This document shows, in pieces, positions 32,402-56,255 of a DNA stretch of 64,000 nt (within the stretch, counting starts at the first letter, position 1; each line of letters begins with the position of its first letter). The notes beneath the pieces were generated by a model that was not told the origin of the DNA, made no database searches, and worked only from the letters and a program-made list of their open reading frames with translations. The position numbers and the translations under genes are program-made. Source of the stretch: a bacterium (GTDB taxonomy: Bacteria > Sysuimicrobiota > Sysuimicrobiia > Sysuimicrobiales > Segetimicrobiaceae); NCBI GenBank assembly GCA_035295165.1, contig DATGJN010000093.1, forward strand, positions 95-64,094, written 5' to 3'.

Positions 32402-32450
32402 CAAACAAGCCGCGAGTCCGCGCCGACCGCGTGGCCTTGGGTGCCGTGAC

Positions 32451-32485
32451 GCCAGCCCAACGAACCGTTGGGGTGGCGTTTTTTT
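32451..32485 (+). terminator. intrinsic terminator/attenuator inside the amtB 5' leader: 12-bp stem (one G.G mismatch), AAC loop, then GTTTTTTTG
   Basis: 5' arm GCCAGCCCAACG (32451-32462), 3' arm CGTTGGGGTGGC (32466-32477), T7 tract 32479-32485. It lies about 95 nt upstream of the amtB ATG and downstream of the TTGACA element. Confidence 0.5.
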
Positions 32486-32580
32486 GTGCCCCGGGCGGCT
32501 TGAGGCCGGGACGCCTCCGATTGCGAGACCTGGACGCGCGTGGCGGCAGACCACCGCGCCTGTGACGAGGAGGAGGCACG

Positions 32581-33882
32581 ATGACAACGACACCGACGCT
32601 CAACGGGGCGGATCTTGCTTGGATGATGACCGCGACCGCACTGGTGCTCCTCATGACGCCCGCGCTCGGCTTCTTCTACGGGGGCATGACCGGCAACAAG
32701 AACGTCCTGAACACGATCCTGATGAGCTTCACCACGCTTGGGTTCTCCCTGGTCGCGTGGGCCCTGGTCGGGTACTCGCTCGCGTTCAGCCCCGGCAGCG
32801 CCCTGCTGGGCGACCTCCGCTGGATGCTGCTCAACCATGTCAACCTGGCGCCCGGCCAGTCGTTGAGCCCCACGATCGCCCCTGTCATCTACATGGCGTT
32901 CCAGGCGACGTTCGCGATCATCACGACGGCGCTCGTCTCGGGCGGCATCATCGGGCGGATGCGGTTTCAAGCGTACCTGGTGTTCATCACGCTGTGGATC
33001 GTGTGCGTGTACGCACCGATTGCCCACTGGGTGTGGGGCGGAGGCTGGCTCGGGAGTCTCGGCGCGCTCGACTTCGCGGGCGGGACCGTTGTGCACGTGA
33101 ACGCAGGAGTCGCCGCGCTTGTCGCCGCGCTCGTCGTGGGCAACCGCACGGACTACGGACGGCAGGCGTTCGTGCCGGGGAATGTCCCGTTCGTGCTGCT
33201 CGGCGCCGCACTGCTCTGGTTCGGGTGGTTCGGCTTCAACGGCGGCAGCGCCGTGGCGTCGAACGGGCTCGCCGCCCTGGCGTTCGTGAACACGTTCCTG
33301 GCCCCTGCGGGAACGATGGTGGTGTGGGCACTGCTCGACATGCGGCGTCTCGGGAAGGTGACCGCGATCGGGATCGCGAGCGCGATCGTCGTCGGACTGG
33401 TCGTGATCACGCCCGCGTCCGGCTTTGTGCCGCCGATCTGGGCCCTCGTCATGGGCGGGCTCGGCGCCGTCCCAAGCTACTATGCGATGCAGTGGCGGGC
33501 CAAGACTCCGGTCGACGAGTCCCTGGACGTCTTCGCCGGGCACGCGGTCGGAGGGGCGACCGGCGCGATCCTGACCGGCGTATTCGCGGTCAAGGCGTGG
33601 AACACCGTGCAGAACGGGTTGATCGCCGGCAATCCGCAGCAGATCCTCATCCAGGCGCTGGCGGTTGCCGGGGCGGCGGCCTACAGTGCGCTCGGTACGT
33701 TCGTACTCCTCAAGGTGATCGGCGCCGTGATGCCGCTGCGCGCCGCCCGTCAAGATCAGGCGCTGGGGATGGATCCCACCCAGCACGGCGAGGAAGCGTA
33801 CACGGGCGGCGAGGGTACCGTGTTGGTGCTGCCGGAGATCTCGCCGCAACCGAAGCTGGAATCAGCGAGGGCGAAGGCATGA
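32581..33882 (+). CDS. amtB: ammonium transporter AmtB
   Basis: 433 aa, about 11 TM helices, with Amt signature blocks (DFAGGTVVH, GFNGGS). It overlaps the glnK ATG (ATGA). Confidence 0.9.
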   Translation: MTTTPTLNGADLAWMMTATALVLLMTPALGFFYGGMTGNKNVLNTILMSFTTLGFSLVAWALVGYSLAFSPGSALLGDLRWMLLNHVNLAPGQSLSPTIAPVIYMAFQATFAIITTALVSGGIIGRMRFQAYLVFITLWIVCVYAPIAHWVWGGGWLGSLGALDFAGGTVVHVNAGVAALVAALVVGNRTDYGRQAFVPGNVPFVLLGAALLWFGWFGFNGGSAVASNGLAALAFVNTFLAPAGTMVVWALLDMRRLGKVTAIGIASAIVVGLVVITPASGFVPPIWALVMGGLGAVPSYYAMQWRAKTPVDESLDVFAGHAVGGATGAILTGVFAVKAWNTVQNGLIAGNPQQILIQALAVAGAAAYSALGTFVLLKVIGAVMPLRAARQDQALGMDPTQHGEEAYTGGEGTVLVLPEISPQPKLESARAKA

Positions 33883-34229
33883 AGATCATCGTGGCGATCG
33901 TGCGTCCCGAGAGGGCCAACGACGTCTTGGAGGCGCTGTACAGGGCCGAGGTGCGCGGACTGTCGCTTAGCCGCGTGCAAGGGCACGGCGGCGAGCTTGA
34001 GCGCATGGAGACGTATCGCGGGATGACCGTCAAGGTTGAGCTCACCGAGAAAGTGCGCTTCGAGATCGGCGTGTCGGACCACTTCGTCGAGCCGACCGTG
34101 CGGGCGATCATGCTCGCGGCGCGCACCGGCGAGGTCGGCGACGGGAAGATCTTCGTGCTGCCGGTGGACAAGGTGTACCGAATTCGGACCGGCGAAGAGG
34201 ACACGGCGGCGGTGACCCCGGTCGGCTGA
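33879..34229 (+). CDS. glnK: nitrogen regulatory protein P-II (GlnK/GlnB)
   Basis: 116 aa, MKIIVAIVRPERANDVLEAL... It has a T-loop region with RYRG-like RGMTVKVE and the C-terminal GDGKIFV motif. This is the classic amtB-glnK operon. Confidence 0.9.
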   Translation: MKIIVAIVRPERANDVLEALYRAEVRGLSLSRVQGHGGELERMETYRGMTVKVELTEKVRFEIGVSDHFVEPTVRAIMLAARTGEVGDGKIFVLPVDKVYRIRTGEEDTAAVTPVG

Positions 34230-49457: not shown

Positions 49458-50900
49458 CTACACGTCGTAGTAGAGGAAGAACTCGTACGGAACCGGTCGG
49501 ATGTCCACCTCATAGAGCTCTTTCGTGCGCTTGTAGTCGACCCAGGTGTCCAGCAGGTCCCGCGTAAAGACGTCTCCCTCCATCAGAAACTCGTGGTCTG
49601 ACTCGAGCGCCGCGAGCGCGGCGCCGAGGGAACCCGGCACGCTCTTGATCTTGGCCGCGTCCTCGGGCGAGAGGTGGTACGTGTTCGTGTCCAGCGGACC
49701 GAACCCCGCCTTCGTCGGGTCGATCTTCCGCTTGATCCCGTCCAACCCGGCCATCAGCATCGCGGCGAACGCGAGATACGGGTTGCACGTCGCGTCTGGA
49801 CACCGGAACTCGAGACGCTTGCTCGCCGCGGCCGCGGGCCCGGCGAAGTACATCGGGATGCGCACCGCCGCGCTCCGGTTGCGCTTGCTGAACGCGACGT
49901 TCACCGGGGCTTCGTAATGCGGCACGAGCCGGCGGTACGAGTTGGTCGTGCACGCGCACAGCGCGAGGAGCGCGTCGACGTGCGTCAACAGTCCGCCGAC
50001 GTAGTAGAGGGCGTCCTGGCTCAACTCCGCGTAGCCGCCCTCACTGTAGAATAGGTTCGCGCCGCCTTTCCAGAGGCTCTGGTGTGTGTGCATCCCGGTA
50101 CCGTTGTCGCCAAACAACGGCTTCGGCATGAACGTCGCCGTCATGCCGTGGCGTCGCGCGATGTTCTTCACGATGTACTTGTAGCTCAGCAGGCTGTCGG
50201 CCATCCTGGTGAGCGTGTTGTACTTCATGTCGATCTCGCACTGCCCCGCCGAGGCGACCTCGTGGTGCTGCATCTCCACCTCGATGCCCCACGCTTCCAT
50301 CTGGAGCGACATCTCACTGCGCAGGTCCAGCAGCGTGTCGGCCGGCGGAACAGGGAAGTAGCCCTCCTTGGTGCGGATCCGGTTGCCCATTCCGGGCTGC
50401 CCGGTGTTCCAGACGGCCTCGGGGGAGTCGATGCTGTAGCCCATCCGGTGCGGAAGCACTTCGTACTGCACGTTGCTGAAGACGAAGAACTCCGCCTCCG
50501 GCCCCCAGTAGCTCACGTCCGCGACTCCCGACTGCTTGAGGTAGTCCTCCGCCTTCTGCGCGACGTACCGGGGATCGCGGGAATATGGCTTGCCCGTGGT
50601 GGGATCGTTGACGTTGCAGACGATCGACAGCGTCGGGATCTCCGTAAACGGGTCGGGATGAGCCGTCGCCGGATCGGGCATGAGGAGCATGTCGCTCTCT
50701 TCGATCGCCTGGAAGCCGCGGATGCTGCTCCCGTCGAACCCGATGCCGCGCTTGAACGTTTTGTCGTCGATCTGGCTCGCCGGAATCGTCGCGTGCTGCC
50801 ACGTGCCGGGCACGTCCACGAACTTGAGATCCACCATCTTGATGCCGCGGTCCTTGATATACGCGACGACATCCTGTGCGGTCATCTCCTTGCCAGGCAT
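49458..50900 (-). CDS. glnA: glutamine synthetase type I (GlnA)
   Basis: 480 aa, close to actinobacterial GlnA1 blocks (DGSSIRGFQ, KPLFGDNGSGMH, NRSAAVRIP, and the adenylylation-region tail). RBS GGAGGTGGAG. Confidence 0.92.
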   Translation of the reverse strand: MPGKEMTAQDVVAYIKDRGIKMVDLKFVDVPGTWQHATIPASQIDDKTFKRGIGFDGSSIRGFQAIEESDMLLMPDPATAHPDPFTEIPTLSIVCNVNDPTTGKPYSRDPRYVAQKAEDYLKQSGVADVSYWGPEAEFFVFSNVQYEVLPHRMGYSIDSPEAVWNTGQPGMGNRIRTKEGYFPVPPADTLLDLRSEMSLQMEAWGIEVEMQHHEVASAGQCEIDMKYNTLTRMADSLLSYKYIVKNIARRHGMTATFMPKPLFGDNGTGMHTHQSLWKGGANLFYSEGGYAELSQDALYYVGGLLTHVDALLALCACTTNSYRRLVPHYEAPVNVAFSKRNRSAAVRIPMYFAGPAAAASKRLEFRCPDATCNPYLAFAAMLMAGLDGIKRKIDPTKAGFGPLDTNTYHLSPEDAAKIKSVPGSLGAALAALESDHEFLMEGDVFTRDLLDTWVDYKRTKELYEVDIRPVPYEFFLYYDV

Positions 50901-50950
50901 TTCTCCACCTCCGCATCCCCCGCCCCGGGATTATGTCTGGATTGTCGGGC

Positions 50951-50988
50951 CAAACAAAAACGCCCTCCGAGCCGATGCTCGGAAGGCG
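50951..50988 (-). terminator. intrinsic terminator/attenuator in the glnA 5' UTR: 11-bp stem (one mismatch), hexaloop, then UUUUUGUUU
   Basis: Minus strand: CGCCUUCCGAG-caucgg-CUCGGAGGGCG then UUUUUGUUU (plus coordinates 50961-50988 stem, 50951-50960 A-run). It lies between the predicted glnA promoter (about 51024-51052) and the glnA RBS (about 50910). Confidence 0.55.
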
Positions 50989-51023
50989 TCCAGGCCCCCG
51001 GTACCTCTGAGTACCTAGTGAGT

Positions 51024-51308: not shown

Positions 51309-51656
51309 TTAGCTCTTGACCAACCCGACGCGATTGCCGTCCGGATCGGCGAAGAGCGCGAACGTCACCATACCCGGGATCTCAGTGGGCGGAACCACGG
51401 TCTTGCCGCCCAGCTGCTGGACTTTGTTCAAGTACGCTTGGAGGTCGTTCACGCGCACGTAGAACGTGACCTGCTGCTGCCCGTCCGGCGACGTGCCGAT
51501 GCCCCCGCCGACGCCGCCGGCGTCTTTGCCGTCGACGAGCCCGTACCCCATCGGGTTGTCGGCGTTGACCTTCCATCCGAAGAGCTGGCCGTAGAACCGC
51601 TGGAGCTTTGGGCCGTCCTTTCCCATGATCTCCCAGTGCACGACCGGATCGCCCAT
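51309..51656 (-). CDS. VOC family (glyoxalase/bleomycin-resistance) protein
   Basis: Start at the third of three ATGs (51656) with an AAGGAGG RBS. 115 aa, HWEIMGKDG...GNRVGL glyoxalase fold. Confidence 0.7.
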   Translation of the reverse strand: MGDPVVHWEIMGKDGPKLQRFYGQLFGWKVNADNPMGYGLVDGKDAGGVGGGIGTSPDGQQQVTFYVRVNDLQAYLNKVQQLGGKTVVPPTEIPGMVTFALFADPDGNRVGLVKS

Positions 51657-51847
51657 CATCATCCTCCTTGATCGATCAGGGTGCCCGAACTGGCGTGCGC
51701 CCGTGGACCTGCTCCAGGCTCGAACTCGGCGAGGCAGAGGAGCGCGAAGCGGCGCGTTTAATGCGGCGTCCTCCAGTCTGCCAGCGTGGAGTAACGTTCG
51801 TGTAGCGCAGCGCGGTCGGGCCGGATGCCGCCCGGACGGTTGCGGCG

Positions 51848-52312
51848 CTAGCGTCCGGCAGCCTCGGGAGCGACCCACGGATCCGGCCCGGGTTCCTTCC
51901 CCGCTGCGGCGAGCGCCAGCCGGTCAAGATAGTGTGTCCATCCCTCGCCGTGACTGTCGCGACGATCGGCGCGCAGTCCCCGGTGTGTCAAGCGGACGAT
52001 CGTTTCGTCGCCGTCCGGCGTCAGCGTGATCTCAACGGTCGTCGATCCCGGAGGCACGACGTCCGGTTCTTGCTCCCATCCCCACGTGAAGACGATCCGG
52101 CGGTAGGGCACGAGCTCCACGTACCGGCCGCGCGATCGGTGGCCTCCGGTGACGTTGACATAGTACACACCGCCGGGGCGAGGATCCAGGTCCGCCTCAA
52201 TGCCGTGCCACTTGACCATCTTGGCCGGGTCGGTGAAGAACGCGTAGATCGTCTCCGGACGGGCGGCGATTCTGATCGAGCGGGTGAGGCTATCGGGGGC
52301 GTCGGGCGCCAC
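51848..52312 (-). CDS. SRPBCC (AHSA1/Aha1-like) domain protein
   Basis: GTG at 52312 with an AAGGAGG RBS. It forms the typical ArsR-SRPBCC gene pair with the upstream ArsR gene. Confidence 0.6.
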   Translation of the reverse strand: MAPDAPDSLTRSIRIAARPETIYAFFTDPAKMVKWHGIEADLDPRPGGVYYVNVTGGHRSRGRYVELVPYRRIVFTWGWEQEPDVVPPGSTTVEITLTPDGDETIVRLTHRGLRADRRDSHGEGWTHYLDRLALAAAGKEPGPDPWVAPEAAGR

Positions 52313-52637
52313 GGCGGATCGGCCTCCTTTGTTCGGTCTCCGCGGCCTGCTTGAGCCGCGCGAGGTTCTCGTCCCAGAACGTCTCCAGGAAGGCCCGCAA
52401 CTCGGCCAACCCCTCGGGGCGCGCCCGGTACAGCCGGCGCGCGCCGTCGCGGCGCTCCGCGAGCAGGCCCGCGTCGACGAGGACGCGCAGGTGCTGCGAG
52501 ACCGCGGGACGCGTGACCTCAAACTGTGAGGCGATCTCGCCCGCGGAACGTTCGGCGTCCCAGACCAATTCGAGGATCCGGCGCCGCCGGGGCTCGGCGA
52601 TCGCGCGAAGAGCAGTGTCGAGCGCGGGAGTCCCCAT
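52290..52637 (-). CDS. ArsR/SmtB family transcriptional regulator
   Basis: wHTH RRRILELVWDAERSAGEIASQFEVTRPAVSQHLRVL. Confidence 0.8.
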   Translation of the reverse strand: MGTPALDTALRAIAEPRRRRILELVWDAERSAGEIASQFEVTRPAVSQHLRVLVDAGLLAERRDGARRLYRARPEGLAELRAFLETFWDENLARLKQAAETEQRRPIRRGARRPR

Positions 52638-52795
52638 GTCGGAAGGTTAGCATATACTTACGTTAGTGTCAACTAACTTACGTGTGTGGCCGATGACGTC
52701 GATTCAGACGGCGCCGGGTGGGGGGTACGCGCGCGGCTTGACACGGCTCCCCCGCGGTGCGGGCGATGACGCGTCCGGCCGTTCGGGCCCGGGGG

Positions 52796-54586
52796 TCAGC
52801 GGTGCTTTCGCCGGGCACCCGACGCCGCCGGGCGCGAGCCGGCAGGCCGACGGGCCGGGTGCTTGGCGCGGGCCTTGGGCCCGGCCCGCTTCGCGGCCGC
52901 GCGCGCGGGCTTCGGGGCCTTCTTTGCTCCTGGCTTCGCCCTGGTTCGGGGCTTCGACGTCTTTGCGGCCGCGCGCCGGGGCGCGGCCGGGGCGGCCTCC
53001 ACGCCGCCGACCGGGACGAGCTCGAACATGGTGGTCGGCGCCGGCACCCCGGCACCCTTGACGGCGCCCGGAAGGATGCGAAACACGGGGCACAAGAACA
53101 CCTCGATCCTCCCCCCCCCGGGGGCGAACAGCGCGGGGAGGTGCAGTGTCCGGAGCCCCACGATCGTCAGCGGTCCGCTCGGCGGCGTGGTAAGCCATCT
53201 ACGCACGGTGTCATAGGCCGGCGTGCTGGGGGCCGCGACGGCAGTGATGCGCGTCCGGCCGGCAGCGTCCCCGAACGCGAAGAGAAACGGCCGGCCGTCC
53301 ACGAATTGGCTCCGTCCGCCATAGAACTGGCCGGTCATATAGACGTACGCGGTTTCGGTGACCGGGGCGTGCCTGAACGTCATCGTGCCGCCGGTAAACG
53401 CCACGCGGGTCGATGGCTGGAAATCTGGGAATGGCATCGGGTGGACGCTCTCGACCTGTGTCCACTCCGCTCCACCGGGGGCATCGACGGGGATCGGCGG
53501 AAACGTGAGCCCCCGTTCCGTCGTGACGCTCCGCACAGGATGGATCTCCAGCAGTCGGGGTACGGCGGGGTGCGTGCCCGAGGCGTGGTCAGGCAGCAGG
53601 CGCAGCAGCCCCGTCACGGTGACCCGCTGCTGCGTGGCGATCACCTCGTCCAGGAGTTGCGCGTACTGGCTGTGGGCGGTTCCTCCGGCGTCGAGCGCGC
53701 CCGGCCGGATTGTGTTTTGGATCACGCACGCGATGATGCCGCCGTCGGACTCCCCGGTAGAGGGCGCCAGGCCGAACGCCACACCGAGCCCGTACTCGCC
53801 TTCGGGGCCGCGGGCGGTGACGTGTCCCTCCACGCTCACGTCAACCCCCGGTGTGAAGCGAAGGTAGGCGAGGGGTTCGGCTCCCGACACGACGAGATCC
53901 GGTTGGTCCGTCGATCCCGGCATCATCCGGACGGCGCTGAGCACGCGCAGGAGATCCGCCGGCGTCCTCACGTCGATCCGTCCGGCGGGGCGGGCCGGCG
54001 TGTGCTGCCGCATCTCGTCCGAGACGAGGATCGCGCGGGCGATTTCGCGCATCGGCGTGCGCGAATTCCGGCTCTGCCGTTGGATCCGCAGGAACGCCTC
54101 CTGCTCGTCGATGCCCTCGCGCTGCATCAAGATGCCCTTCGCTCGGTCCACCAGCTTGCGGGTCTCGAGGGTCTCCTTGAGATTGCCCACTTCCTGCTGG
54201 AGCGCGCGCAGCTCAGCGAAGCGCGCCATCGCGACTTCGATCACGGGAACCAGCTCGGCCTCGCGCACCGGCTTCACGAGGTAGGCGAGCACGCCGGCCT
54301 CCTGGGCGCGCTGCACGAGGTCGCGCTCGCTCCACGCCGTGAGGAGGATGATCGGCCGCGGCTGGCGCGTCATGATCGTGGACGCCGCCGAGATGCCGTC
54401 GAGGCCAGGCATCTTGATGTCCATGAAGATCAGATCGGGGGCGAGTTTGCCGGCGAGCGTCACCGCCTCCTCGCCGTCCCCGGCTTCCCCGACCACCTTG
54501 TAATCGTGTTCCTCGAGCATCGTCCGCAGGCCCATACGGATGACCGGCTCGTCGTCGGCGATCAGGATGCGCATCGCGTCGATCAT
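52796..54586 (-). CDS. response regulator with REC + ANTAR RNA-binding domains (PdtaR/AmiR/NasR-type) fused to a ~390-aa uncharacterised C-terminal region and a Lys/Ala/Pro-rich basic tail
   Basis: REC domain (ILIADDEPVIRMGL...MPGLDG with a phospho-acceptor D). ANTAR helices (KLVDRAKGILMQREGIDEQEAFLRIQRQSRNSRTPMREIARAIL). The rest is protein-like but unrecognised. The last 60 aa are an AKP-rich histone-H1-like tail. Confidence 0.8.
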   Translation of the reverse strand: MIDAMRILIADDEPVIRMGLRTMLEEHDYKVVGEAGDGEEAVTLAGKLAPDLIFMDIKMPGLDGISAASTIMTRQPRPIILLTAWSERDLVQRAQEAGVLAYLVKPVREAELVPVIEVAMARFAELRALQQEVGNLKETLETRKLVDRAKGILMQREGIDEQEAFLRIQRQSRNSRTPMREIARAILVSDEMRQHTPARPAGRIDVRTPADLLRVLSAVRMMPGSTDQPDLVVSGAEPLAYLRFTPGVDVSVEGHVTARGPEGEYGLGVAFGLAPSTGESDGGIIACVIQNTIRPGALDAGGTAHSQYAQLLDEVIATQQRVTVTGLLRLLPDHASGTHPAVPRLLEIHPVRSVTTERGLTFPPIPVDAPGGAEWTQVESVHPMPFPDFQPSTRVAFTGGTMTFRHAPVTETAYVYMTGQFYGGRSQFVDGRPFLFAFGDAAGRTRITAVAAPSTPAYDTVRRWLTTPPSGPLTIVGLRTLHLPALFAPGGGRIEVFLCPVFRILPGAVKGAGVPAPTTMFELVPVGGVEAAPAAPRRAAAKTSKPRTRAKPGAKKAPKPARAAAKRAGPKARAKHPARRPAGSRPAASGARRKHR

Positions 54587-54587
54587 G

Positions 54588-56255
54588 CTACACTCCCGCC
54601 GGCCGTGGCATCGTGATCACCGCGCGCGTGCCGCCCGCGTTCGTGAAGTCGATCCGGCCCTTGAGGTCATCCCGAACGAGCGTGTGCACAATCTCGAGCC
54701 CCAGGTCGCCGGACCGATCGGGGGAGAACCCCGGCGGCAGTCCGATCCCGTCGTCCTGGACCTCGACCCGCAGCGTGTCGCGTCCGGCCGCGAGCGTGAT
54801 GAGCACCGTGCCGTTGGTCCGCCCGTTGAACGCATGCTCCATCGCATTCTGCAGCAGTTCGTTGACGACGAGCGCGAGCGAGGTCGCCTGCCGGCTGGGC
54901 AGACTGACGTCGTCGCCGGTGACCTTGACGGCGAGCGCGAACCCGGGCGGGGCCATCGTCTGTGAGACGGTCTGAGCCACGTGCTCGAGCATCTCGCGGG
55001 CGACGACCTGGCGTACGCCCTCCGCGGCGAGAATCTCGTGCACCGCGGCGATGCTGAGGATCCGGTTGATCGTCTCCGTCAGCACCTCGCGGCCGGAGAC
55101 CTCCCGGCCGTCGCGCAGTTGCAGGCGGAGGAGCATCGCGATCATCTGCAGGTTGTTCTTGACGCGGTGGTGCATCTCGCGGACCATCGCCGACTTCACG
55201 ACCAGACTGGCGTTCTCGATCGCAAGCGCGGTCTGGTTGGCGAGGGTCTGCAGCATGTTGATCTCCGACTGGGTGAACTGGTGCCGCCGCGCCGTGTAGC
55301 AGTTGATCACGCCGAGCGTGCGGTCTCGTACCCGAAGCGGCACCGAGAGCAGTGACCGCACGTGGGGCGGCTCGACCAGCTCGTGCGCGAGGAAGCGGGG
55401 GTCGCTGGCGAGGTCCAGGCTCGCCGCCGGCTGGCCGCTGGCCGCGGCCTCTCCGGGAATACCCTCCCCGGCGCGAAGGGTGCGGCGGGGGCGGCTCCCC
55501 GATGGTTCGGGGTGGGCCGCGGCGAGCACGAGCTCATCGCCGTCGAGCAGCATCAACGTGCACATCGGCGCGTCGAATACCCGCGCGGCCATCTCCACCA
55601 CCAGCCGGAGGATCTGCTCGAGGTAGAGCGGCGAGGTCAGCGTCTCGCTGACCTCGGCGAGCGTACGGAGCTCCATGATCTGGCGCCGCATGCTGTCGTA
55701 CAGGCGCGCCTTCTCGAGGGTGCCGCTGGCGAGGTCGGCGATAATGCTGAGCAGCTCGACCTCGTCCTCGCCCCACTCGTGCGCGCCGGTCGTTTGGACG
55801 TTGATCGCGCCGAGCACTTTGCCGGCCACGGTCAGCGGCACGGCGAGCAGCGACTGGAACAGCACCTCGTGCGTCTCCGGGAGGAGCTTGAAGCGCGGAT
55901 CCGCCGCCGCGTCGGTGGAGGCGACGGGTTGCCCCGTGTCGGCCGCCCAGCCGGTCAGGCCCTCGCCCAGCCGAAGGCGGGCGCGGCCGATCGCGTCCGC
56001 AGCGAGGCCGGTCGTGGCGTTGAGGACGAGGTACTCGCGTGAGGCGTCCAGGAGGTAGATCGAGCAGCTGTCCACCCGCATGACCTCCGCGGTCGTGCGG
56101 GTGATCAGGGTGAGCGTGGTGTCGAGGTCCAGCGCGGCGCTGATCGCCCGGCTGATGGCGCGGAGCGCGGAGATTTCCGCCGTCTTCCGGGCGAGCTGTT
56201 GGGTCGGACCGTGTTCTCGGGTACGCTCGTGCGTCATCGCCCCTCCGTGCGACAC
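54588..56255 (-). CDS. sensor histidine kinase with two GAF domains and a HisKA_2/HATPase core (PdtaS-like)
   Basis: Two GAF blocks. H-box MVREMHHRVKNNLQMIAMLL is typical of HisKA_2. C-terminal ATPase G-boxes. It sits immediately upstream of, and on the same strand as, the ANTAR regulator. Confidence 0.8.
   Translation of the reverse strand: MSHGGAMTHERTREHGPTQQLARKTAEISALRAISRAISAALDLDTTLTLITRTTAEVMRVDSCSIYLLDASREYLVLNATTGLAADAIGRARLRLGEGLTGWAADTGQPVASTDAAADPRFKLLPETHEVLFQSLLAVPLTVAGKVLGAINVQTTGAHEWGEDEVELLSIIADLASGTLEKARLYDSMRRQIMELRTLAEVSETLTSPLYLEQILRLVVEMAARVFDAPMCTLMLLDGDELVLAAAHPEPSGSRPRRTLRAGEGIPGEAAASGQPAASLDLASDPRFLAHELVEPPHVRSLLSVPLRVRDRTLGVINCYTARRHQFTQSEINMLQTLANQTALAIENASLVVKSAMVREMHHRVKNNLQMIAMLLRLQLRDGREVSGREVLTETINRILSIAAVHEILAAEGVRQVVAREMLEHVAQTVSQTMAPPGFALAVKVTGDDVSLPSRQATSLALVVNELLQNAMEHAFNGRTNGTVLITLAAGRDTLRVEVQDDGIGLPPGFSPDRSGDLGLEIVHTLVRDDLKGRIDFTNAGGTRAVITMPRPAGV

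Follow-up and report, generated by a model that had tools for sequence, protein, structure and literature searches.

The closest described relatives of the system reported here are the ANTAR response regulators PdtaR (Rv1626), EutV and AmiR. In these proteins a receiver (REC) domain with its phospho-acceptor is followed by a coiled-coil linker and an ANTAR domain that carries the residues contacting G4 of an RNA hexaloop, and a kinase is encoded next to them. All of them end at the ANTAR domain (about 190–205 amino acids). There are 149 ANTAR architectures in Pfam, of which the named ones pair sensor or receiver domains with ANTAR (2025 review, PMC12591593). The ANTAR target comprises two hexaloop hairpins with A1 and G4, set 5–12 nucleotides apart, the second overlapping a terminator, and such motifs lie mainly upstream of nitrogen genes, including those for PII, ammonium transporters and glutamine synthetase (Ramesh et al. 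2012, PMC3369931). The sole base-specific contact is the flipped G4 of a single hexaloop, which stacks on EutV Tyr164 and hydrogen-bonds to Arg142, Lys149 and Glu160, and the dimer is unable to bind the two loops of a single RNA simultaneously (Walshe et al. 2022, PMC8934654). We analysed a 64,000-nucleotide stretch, here called the window, of an uncultured member of the Segetimicrobiaceae (GenBank assembly GCA_035295165.1, contig DATGJN010000093.1, positions 95 to 64,094). It encodes an ANTAR regulator of 596 amino acids that shares the domain order, the phospho-acceptor, the G4-contacting residues and the adjacent kinase of these proteins and adds about 400 amino acids. These comprise a module, very probably a pair of OB-folds whose sequence family is new, a short conserved segment and a polybasic tail. 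The coordinates of all features are given in Table 1.

The fused ANTAR regulator

Pfam analysis of the regulator revealed a Response_reg domain (PF00072) at residues 7–116 (E 3.2e-28) and an ANTAR domain (PF03861) at residues 135–187 (E 1.7e-21); no Pfam match was found past about residue 190. The nearest solved structure was that of Mycobacterium tuberculosis Rv1626/PdtaR (1s8n), with an E value of 1e-57 over residues 5–187, and Enterococcus faecalis EutV (6wsh) was a second structural relative (E 1e-40). The alignment to both was gap-free across the linker and the ANTAR domain. The phospho-acceptor D56, T83 and K105 were invariant in the 22 sequences of alignment A1. The EutV residues that contact G4 (R142, K149, E160 and Y164) aligned with R143, K150, E161 and F165 of the regulator.

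The open reading frame (ORF) extended 409 residues beyond the ANTAR domain, and this extension was kept across the lineage. Characterised ANTAR regulators stop near residue 200 (1s8n has 205 amino acids and 6wsh 192), and the module exists as a separate gene in other lineages; both facts would fit an artefact in which a frameshift, an assembly error or a missed stop had joined an ANTAR regulator of ~200 amino acids to a separate downstream gene. We consider such an artefact extremely improbable. The third-position GC content (GC3) was the highest of the three positions in the regulator frame throughout codons 1–596, with no hand-over to another frame. A search with the C-terminal 339 residues only returned 34 proteins, and its full-length matches (575–593 amino acids) all carried REC and ANTAR and were 66–88% identical over the extension. 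A later profile search brought this to about 45 clusters of 575–606 amino acids, 65–88% identical and again all with REC and ANTAR. The REC-ANTAR unit and the extension were contiguous and in one frame in all 14 of the independently assembled loci that span the junction, and no orthologue in alignment A1 had a stop or restart there. P0029 and P0049 were clearly frameshifted derivatives of the fused form.

Comparison with ten orthologues gave ratios of non-synonymous to synonymous change (pN/pS) of 0.05–0.18 for REC-ANTAR, 0.12–0.36 for the module, 0.20–0.72 for residues 506–532 and 0.44–1.05 for the tail; judged by these ratios, the module is under purifying selection. A frameshift or assembly fusion was ruled out by the GC3 periodicity, the 14 contiguous loci and the pN/pS values taken together, and we regard the fusion as real with near certainty. 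Since it is contiguous in the orthologues and under purifying selection, the fusion is a selected feature of the lineage. An antisense ORF of 619 amino acids (window 52,757–54,616, plus strand) spans the entire regulator gene; this shadow ORF was attributed to the high GC content because the GC3 periodicity backs the minus-strand frame.

An earlier reading of the window made without database searches (the sequence-only reading) had described a single 596-amino-acid ORF in which a REC-ANTAR regulator continues into an extra module and a basic tail. The ORF was present with the peptides and the tail that had been quoted, and Pfam, the continuous frame and the orthologues bore out the rest and showed the extension to be conserved in the clade. 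Orthologues in which regulator and module are separate ORFs were sought and none was found, the stand-alone homologues of the module being distant (25–34% identity) and not located beside ANTAR genes.

The C-terminal module and its tail

Searches of the module against Pfam (E≤10), NCBIfam, PHROGs, PADLOC and the sequences and profiles of the PDB returned nothing usable. Structure prediction with AlphaFold2 gave a pLDDT of 41 when only the 21 closely related sequences were supplied. When distant stand-alone homologues were added, the pLDDT rose to 87.2 with a pTM of 0.89. The resulting model showed an N-terminal helical cap followed by two units with the strand order beta1-beta2-beta3-helix-beta4-beta5, which matches the closed five-stranded barrel of OB-folds, where a helix separates beta3 from beta4, and the two barrels were predicted to form one rigid unit. 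Foldseek neighbours of the model included the editosome OB protein 4dni, AspRS and Teb1-AB. The top structural neighbours in the fold searches were overwhelmingly nucleic-acid binders, the nearest folds being those of the single-stranded DNA (ssDNA) binders RPA, Teb1, Stn1, PriB and MCM. On this model the module very likely consists of two OB-folds in tandem and represents a sequence family that is new. The sequence-only reading had called this stretch of ~330 amino acids unrecognisable, which holds for sequence profiles and not for the fold, which can be recognised by prediction.

Other tandem OB-fold binders (RPA70 DBD-A/B, Teb1-AB and archaeal RPA) and the anticodon-binding OB-fold of AspRS and LysRS (PF01336) had no significant sequence relationship with the module. 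Unlike these, the module forms part of a signalling protein, and its predicted fold includes a helical cap at the N-terminal end. Among the stand-alone members, one of 12 matched PF01336 weakly (E 0.0015), which was taken to be well short of the Pfam cut-off, its score not being shown. A PADLOC match to SduA covered only residues 4–98, inside the REC domain, and was taken for a receiver-domain cross-match. An internal duplication was rejected as the origin of the two OB-folds, as hhalign detected no similarity between the barrels.

An exhaustive HMM search of 1.84 billion representative proteins recovered only 21 proteins. About a dozen of these were stand-alone proteins of ~300 amino acids that aligned end to end with regulator residues from about 208 to 505 (E 1e-36 to 1e-14), at the 25–34% identity given above, and none adjoined an ANTAR gene as far as their contigs, mostly short, extend. 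Among 5.8 billion proteins the family amounted to about 60 clusters; with its predicted fold, the module of roughly 300 amino acids makes up a new and very rare OB sequence family. The motifs C-E-I-Q-N-A, R-x-F-L-E-H, P-H-I-F-E-x-H-P-V, D-x-P, N-Y-V-Y, P-x-T-P-A-Y, V-A-L-R-S-L and C-P-V-F-R were common to the fused and stand-alone forms. Conservation was densest in beta3, beta4, L45 and beta5 of OB1, where the conserved positions are polar (C, Q, N, R, H, E and H), and the strands of OB2 had conserved aromatic and Arg positions. Conserved residues of the module include C287, Q290, N291, R329, H334, E347, H349 and D368, and further on Y414, F421, F436, R479 and R503. The module was neutral to acidic, with a pI of 5.3–7.0, and most stand-alone members had a pI of 5–6. 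A fixed Cys/His/Glu metal or catalytic site in OB1 was considered and down-weighted, as H143 is replaced by Arg in the window copy and E, Q, H and H are all missing from the corresponding positions of the stand-alone protein P0093.

P0093 and P0036 represent bacterial clusters that are 64% identical to each other and come from genomes of 65–68% GC. Their genes lie directly downstream of a GAF-His_kinase and REC-LytTR pair in a syntenic arrangement (L016:5665-8906 and L105:4723-7909), with a hairpin and an AT-rich, promoter-like stretch with TATAAT boxes (L016 7880–8000, L105 6910–7000) between the pair and the module gene. P0093 had lost most of the conserved polar residues and had kept the sequence of the fold family and the synteny. 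Judged from this gene order, the module has a second, independent link to two-component systems, and the stand-alone module may be a regulated target of the LytTR regulator. As the stand-alone homologues occur with a DNA-binding LytTR regulator or without any regulator, the module is not tied to RNA-binding partners. The remaining stand-alone members were found on low-GC (0.34–0.44), gene-sparse contigs (L017–L020, L108 and L109) or on short contigs. Neighbours on the low-GC contigs encoded a multicopper oxidase, ParB, an M14 peptidase and a REC-only protein, and these contigs may point to ammonia-oxidising archaea. P0039 itself has a short, basic C-terminal tail, KSKERRRRKRK.

In all fused proteins OB2 was separated from the tail by a conserved segment of 27 amino acids that was absent from the stand-alone homologues. 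The tail of the window regulator (64 amino acids) contained 10 Lys (15.6%) and 13 Arg (20.3%), had an Ala plus Pro content of 47% and no acidic residue, and carried a net charge of +23; in the rest of the regulator Lys made up 1.5%. A tail was present in every orthologue, with 42–64 residues, a net charge of +14 to +23 and 0–2 acidic residues. Its sequence and length varied among the orthologues, in a near-neutral drift that is reflected in the pN/pS values given above. From its composition, the tail behaves as a composition-constrained, disordered polycation. Like the tails of HupB/HU, Lsr2-type proteins and histone H1, the window tail is of low complexity, cationic, rich in Lys, Ala and Pro and free of acidic residues. 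It differs from them in that no repeat unit was found in it, at the peptide or the DNA level and including PAKK and AKKA, in that the orthologous tails are Arg-rich, and in that it is attached to an RNA-binding regulator and not to a nucleoid protein. The window tail was the most Lys-rich of all, most orthologues being Arg-dominated (for example 3 Lys and 19 Arg), so that the description "histone-H1-like" given by the sequence-only reading is correct for the window copy and not for the family, in which only the charge is kept.

Nitrogen-gene leaders, kinase and gene order

Analysis of the leader of glnA, which lies 3′ of the regulator gene, revealed an RNA switch that was conserved in 11 loci. 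The leader is headed by the promoter TTGAC-N17-TGGTATAA (window about 51,065–51,030), followed by P1, a GGUAC-hexaloop-GUACC hairpin. P2 abuts P1 and has the form (G/A)NGGGC-[C-N-N-G-A-C]-GCCYYC. The 5′ arm of an intrinsic terminator reuses the 3′ arm of P2 and is followed by a U-run, a small hairpin and a Shine-Dalgarno sequence. The terminator was 95% paired with five compensatory pairs, its covariation score was reached in none of 500 shuffles, and P2 was 94% paired with two compensatory pairs. Alignment column 58 covaried with both of its alternative partners, a pattern characteristic of structures that exclude each other. RNAfold placed P1 and P2 together in 71% of the ensemble of the nascent 43-nucleotide leader, and the complete leader folded into the terminator (-37.2 kcal/mol, z -4.1), which a terminator scan also called. 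In the P2 loop G4 was invariant and A5 was also conserved.

A covariance model, R1, was built from the glnA leaders. It recovered all of them at 45–88 bits (86 bits for the window leader) and also detected the leader of amtB-glnK, 20 kb away, which has a weaker version of the P2 and terminator design (Table 1). Here amtB was located at 32,581–33,882 (TIGR00836, E 4e-119) and the PII gene at about 33,880–34,229 (E 1e-26). Matching elements were found at two of the four closest amtB relatives in metagenome loci: L025 has GCAC-[CCCGAC]-GUGC, then GGC-[CUUGAC]-GCC and a terminator, and the element of L026 is weaker. R1 further detected, at 32.9 bits, an ANTAR target with A1/G4 loops and a 7-nucleotide linker upstream of amtB in the unrelated L092.

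Several details of these leaders were noted in addition. In the window amtB leader P1 was ambiguous, forming either a pentaloop or an alternative hairpin. L026 (2270–2500) has two tandem terminator-like hairpins, of which only the second carries GGU-[CGUGAC]-GCC, and the long amtB leader of L092 (2040–2500), on a low-GC (0.34) contig, has several A1/G4 hexaloop hairpins and terminators. A strict scan of the window for the canonical ANTAR motif, with A1 and G4 in both loops, gave two matches, as many as would be expected by chance, and one of these lay within a long ORF. Rfam gave no match at the gathering threshold over the 64 kb, and the leaders received far sub-threshold chance matches only.

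The kinase gene lies upstream of the regulator gene and both are on the minus strand. The kinase stop and the regulator start read TAG-C-ATG, which leaves a spacer of 1 nucleotide, so that the GAF-GAF-HisKA_2 kinase is where the sequence-only reading had placed it. Pfam matched GAF twice, HisKA_2 (PF07568, E 3e-17) and HATPase_c (PF02518, E 5e-13). There was no Pfam match to a PAS domain in the kinase, which has the two GAF stretches instead, and a scan of it for a transmembrane-like window found none. By sequence, the kinase is of the soluble, cytoplasmic class. It resembles PdtaS-type kinases in this respect and in its N-terminal GAF domain, its HisKA_2/HWE-type dimerisation and histidine phosphotransfer region, its HATPase_c domain and its pairing with an ANTAR regulator. 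The sensor module of PdtaS is GAF plus PAS, whereas the second sensor domain here is also GAF, and the label "PdtaS-like" thus fits the core class and the solubility of the kinase and not its sensor. The N-terminal GAF domain showed the greatest similarity to those of PtsP(EI-Ntr) and NifA, which fits nitrogen sensing and serves as a lead only.

A scan of reference genomes found 15 orthologous loci, all in metagenome-assembled genomes of uncultured soil bacteria whose labels vary (Bacillota, Bacillati ANGP1, Armatimonadota or "bacterium"). In 11 of these loci, which is every one with sequence reaching that far, the kinase gene preceded that of the regulator, and a H+/Na+-pyrophosphatase gene was upstream in 10, the order being kept wherever the locus extends far enough. 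On the 3′ side of the regulator, glnA was present in 11 of the 15 loci, again all that reach far enough, and was directly adjacent in L002, L012 and L014. In the window, an overlapping pair of ArsR-family regulator and SRPBCC genes and a glyoxalase-like gene lie between the regulator and glnA (51,309–52,637, minus strand). This insertion was also seen in some relatives (L007, L010 and L013) and was absent from L002, L012 and L014. A promoter-like TTGACA...TATATG is present at about 52,650–52,680. No other ANTAR gene was found in the window. The regulator is annotated in NCBI as "response regulator" (HLJ61311.1), a plain label that arises because the module and tail are invisible to sequence-profile libraries; as the module has no Pfam model, the protein is presumably filed in Pfam as plain REC plus ANTAR.

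Table 1. Positions of the regulator parts, the kinase and the candidate RNA targets in the window
Feature	Position	Strand	Basis
REC-ANTAR-module-tail response regulator, single 596-aa ORF	52796..54586	-	ORF list, Pfam
REC (residues 7-116), coiled-coil linker, ANTAR (135-187); residues 1-190	54017..54586	-	Pfam, PDB 1s8n/6wsh
Variable Pro/Ala/Arg-rich linker, residues 191-207	53966..54016	-	Poorly conserved in alignment A1; pN/pS up to 0.77
N-terminal cap helices and predicted OB-fold 1, about residues 208-354; C-x-I-Q-N, R, H, E-x-H-P motifs	53525..53965	-	AlphaFold2, alignments A3/A4, fold searches
Inter-domain linker (D-x-P) and predicted OB-fold 2, about residues 355-505; NYVY/TAYVY, P-x-TPAY, LR, FR motifs	53072..53524	-	AlphaFold2, alignments A3/A4, fold searches
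Conserved 27-aa segment PAPTxxFELVPVGG, residues 506-532	52991..53071	-	Alignment A1, P515-G528 near-invariant
Polybasic low-complexity tail, residues 533-596, and stop codon	52796..52990	-	Composition, net +23
Sensor histidine kinase, GAF-GAF-HisKA_2-HATPase_c, 555 aa	54588..56255	-	Pfam; no transmembrane-like segment
glnA leader switch: P1 GGUAC-[UCAGAG]-GUACC, P2 GGGGGC-[CUGGAC]-GCCUUC, competing intrinsic terminator, U-run; probable RNA target	50950..51018	-	Conservation, covariation, R1, RNAfold
Type I glutamine synthetase glnA, downstream of the switch	49458..50900	-	TIGR00653, E 4e-185
Second candidate target, in the leader of amtB-glnK: GC-[CGUGAC]-GC hexaloop hairpin and an overlapping terminator with U7	32422..32489	+	R1 27.5 bits, E about 1e-4

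Possible modes of action and their meaning

Our preferred explanation is a cytoplasmic two-component system that reports nitrogen status and acts by ANTAR antitermination of glnA and amtB-glnK, with further RNA contacts made by the OB-folds and the tail; taken whole, it falls a little short of an even chance. Taken separately, an action of the regulator on the leaders of glnA and amtB is fairly probable, and that the OB-folds and the tail bind RNA is plausible, with the balance somewhat on the negative side. The GAF-GAF-HisKA_2 kinase would sense nitrogen status and phosphorylate the REC domain, and the phosphorylated regulator would, by analogy with EutV, dimerise through its coiled coil. The ANTAR domain would then bind the G4 hexaloop hairpin or hairpins, the first structures to form as the glnA and amtB-glnK leaders are transcribed. 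With P2 held closed, its 3′ arm would be unavailable as the 5′ arm of the terminator, and read-through would follow. The rigid OB pair, the conserved segment and the disordered polybasic tail, carried on a flexible linker, would add contacts to single-stranded RNA, for example to the 3′ arm of the terminator and the U-tract, which antitermination would leave unpaired. The tail would supply non-specific electrostatic affinity, and together with the OB pair it might raise the affinity of the regulator or make antitermination robust.

The leaders become likelier targets because G4 is the only base that ANTAR reads specifically, is invariant in P2, and has its contact residues kept in the regulator. 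This explanation is also backed by the ability of R1 to find the window amtB leader, amtB relatives and an ANTAR target of the known type, and by the regulator being the only ANTAR gene in the window. Several observations weigh against it. The plug residue of EutV, Met172, corresponds to an invariant Arg173 in the regulator family (window 54,068–54,070, minus strand), while PdtaR keeps Met, and EutV R168 and R177 are not retained either. Met172 has been reported to be essential for RNA binding and is a possible determinant of loop size; its replacement by Arg may relate to the altered loop consensus. The candidate loops read Y-N-N-G-A-Y, with U or C and not the canonical A at position 1, and the canonical ANTAR loops A-N-N-G-N-N. 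P1 and P2 abut with a 0-nucleotide linker, compared with 5–12 nucleotides in known targets, and P1 shows no covariation and was lost in L011 and L012. The stand-alone homologues of the module stand beside a DNA-binding LytTR regulator or have no regulator at all. Finally, 64 kb of the genome are visible, and another ANTAR or RNA-binding protein could be the true factor.

The module and tail could instead have a role apart from RNA. In the main alternative, which we consider somewhat unlikely, ANTAR acts on RNA and the OB module serves for regulation or interaction, by binding a protein partner or a small ligand or by auto-inhibiting ANTAR, a PII-type protein being one candidate partner. Comparable control is known, as AmiC sequesters AmiR and NasS sequesters NasT. 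The neutral to acidic charge of the module, the conservation of OB1 on polar residues and not on an aromatic or basic run, the occurrence of stand-alone homologues beside a LytTR system or without a regulator, and the control of AmiR by AmiC binding (PMC12591593) all speak for an interaction domain. The predominance of nucleic-acid binders among the structural neighbours does not, and a tail of +14 to +23 in every orthologue is hard to square with a ligand sensor; the loss of most conserved polar residues in P0093 argues against one fixed ligand or metal site.

It is improbable, in our view, that the OB-folds and the tail bind DNA, single-stranded or duplex, in a dual output in which ANTAR acts on RNA and the remainder has a DNA-anchored or nucleoid role, for example at the GGTAC-N6-GTACC below the -10 box of glnA. 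That sequence is P1 itself (window 51,002–51,018, minus strand; columns 18–42 of alignment A5), which is palindromic and lies just downstream of the -10 box. As its sequence is kept without compensatory change, P1 could be a DNA operator instead of, or besides, an RNA hairpin. The nearest folds of the module are likewise those of ssDNA binders, and its stand-alone homologues adjoin a DNA-binding LytTR regulator. Set against this, the Pfam scans found no helix-turn-helix or other element that reads duplex DNA, a tandem OB-fold would require the DNA to be single-stranded, and the alternation of P2 and terminator with three-way covariation is a feature at the RNA level.

A more specific form of the preferred explanation, antitermination assisted by the module, is rather doubtful as it stands. 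In it, the phosphorylation-activated ANTAR dimer would capture the hexaloop while the tethered RPA-like tandem OB-fold and polycationic tail sequester the 3′ arm of the terminator and the U-tract. If true, this would be a new mode of processive or assisted antitermination that resolves in cis the difficulty exposed by the structure of EutV, in which one dimer faces two hairpins and cannot hold both. The module would then be an unrecognised, free-standing family of RNA- or ssDNA-binding proteins that bacteria, and possibly ammonia-oxidising archaea, have repeatedly wired to two-component systems.

In kind, the system is a known one, an ANTAR two-component regulator of nitrogen genes. As in the ANTAR nitrogen regulons of Desulfotomaculum and Pelobacter (Ramesh et al. 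2012), hexaloops that overlap terminators lie upstream of genes for glutamine synthetase, the ammonium transporter and PII; the loop consensus and the hairpin spacing differ from those regulons, and the window regulator has the extra module. What is new is the extension beyond ANTAR, with its predicted tandem OB-fold and its polybasic tail, together with the rare OB family and the variant loop consensus of the candidate targets, and literature searches for a link between ANTAR and OB-folds gave coincidental matches only. ANTAR regulators have been regarded as having two domains, with the output complete at the three-helix RNA-binding domain, and here a lineage-wide, selected extension follows it. 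The locus offers a natural experiment on how ANTAR antitermination is reinforced or re-specified, which bears on the question of one dimer and two hairpins. The GAF kinase, the regulator and the glnA and amtB-glnK leaders would make up a compact nitrogen circuit in an uncultured soil lineage, and the variant hexaloop consensus would widen motif searches for ANTAR targets.

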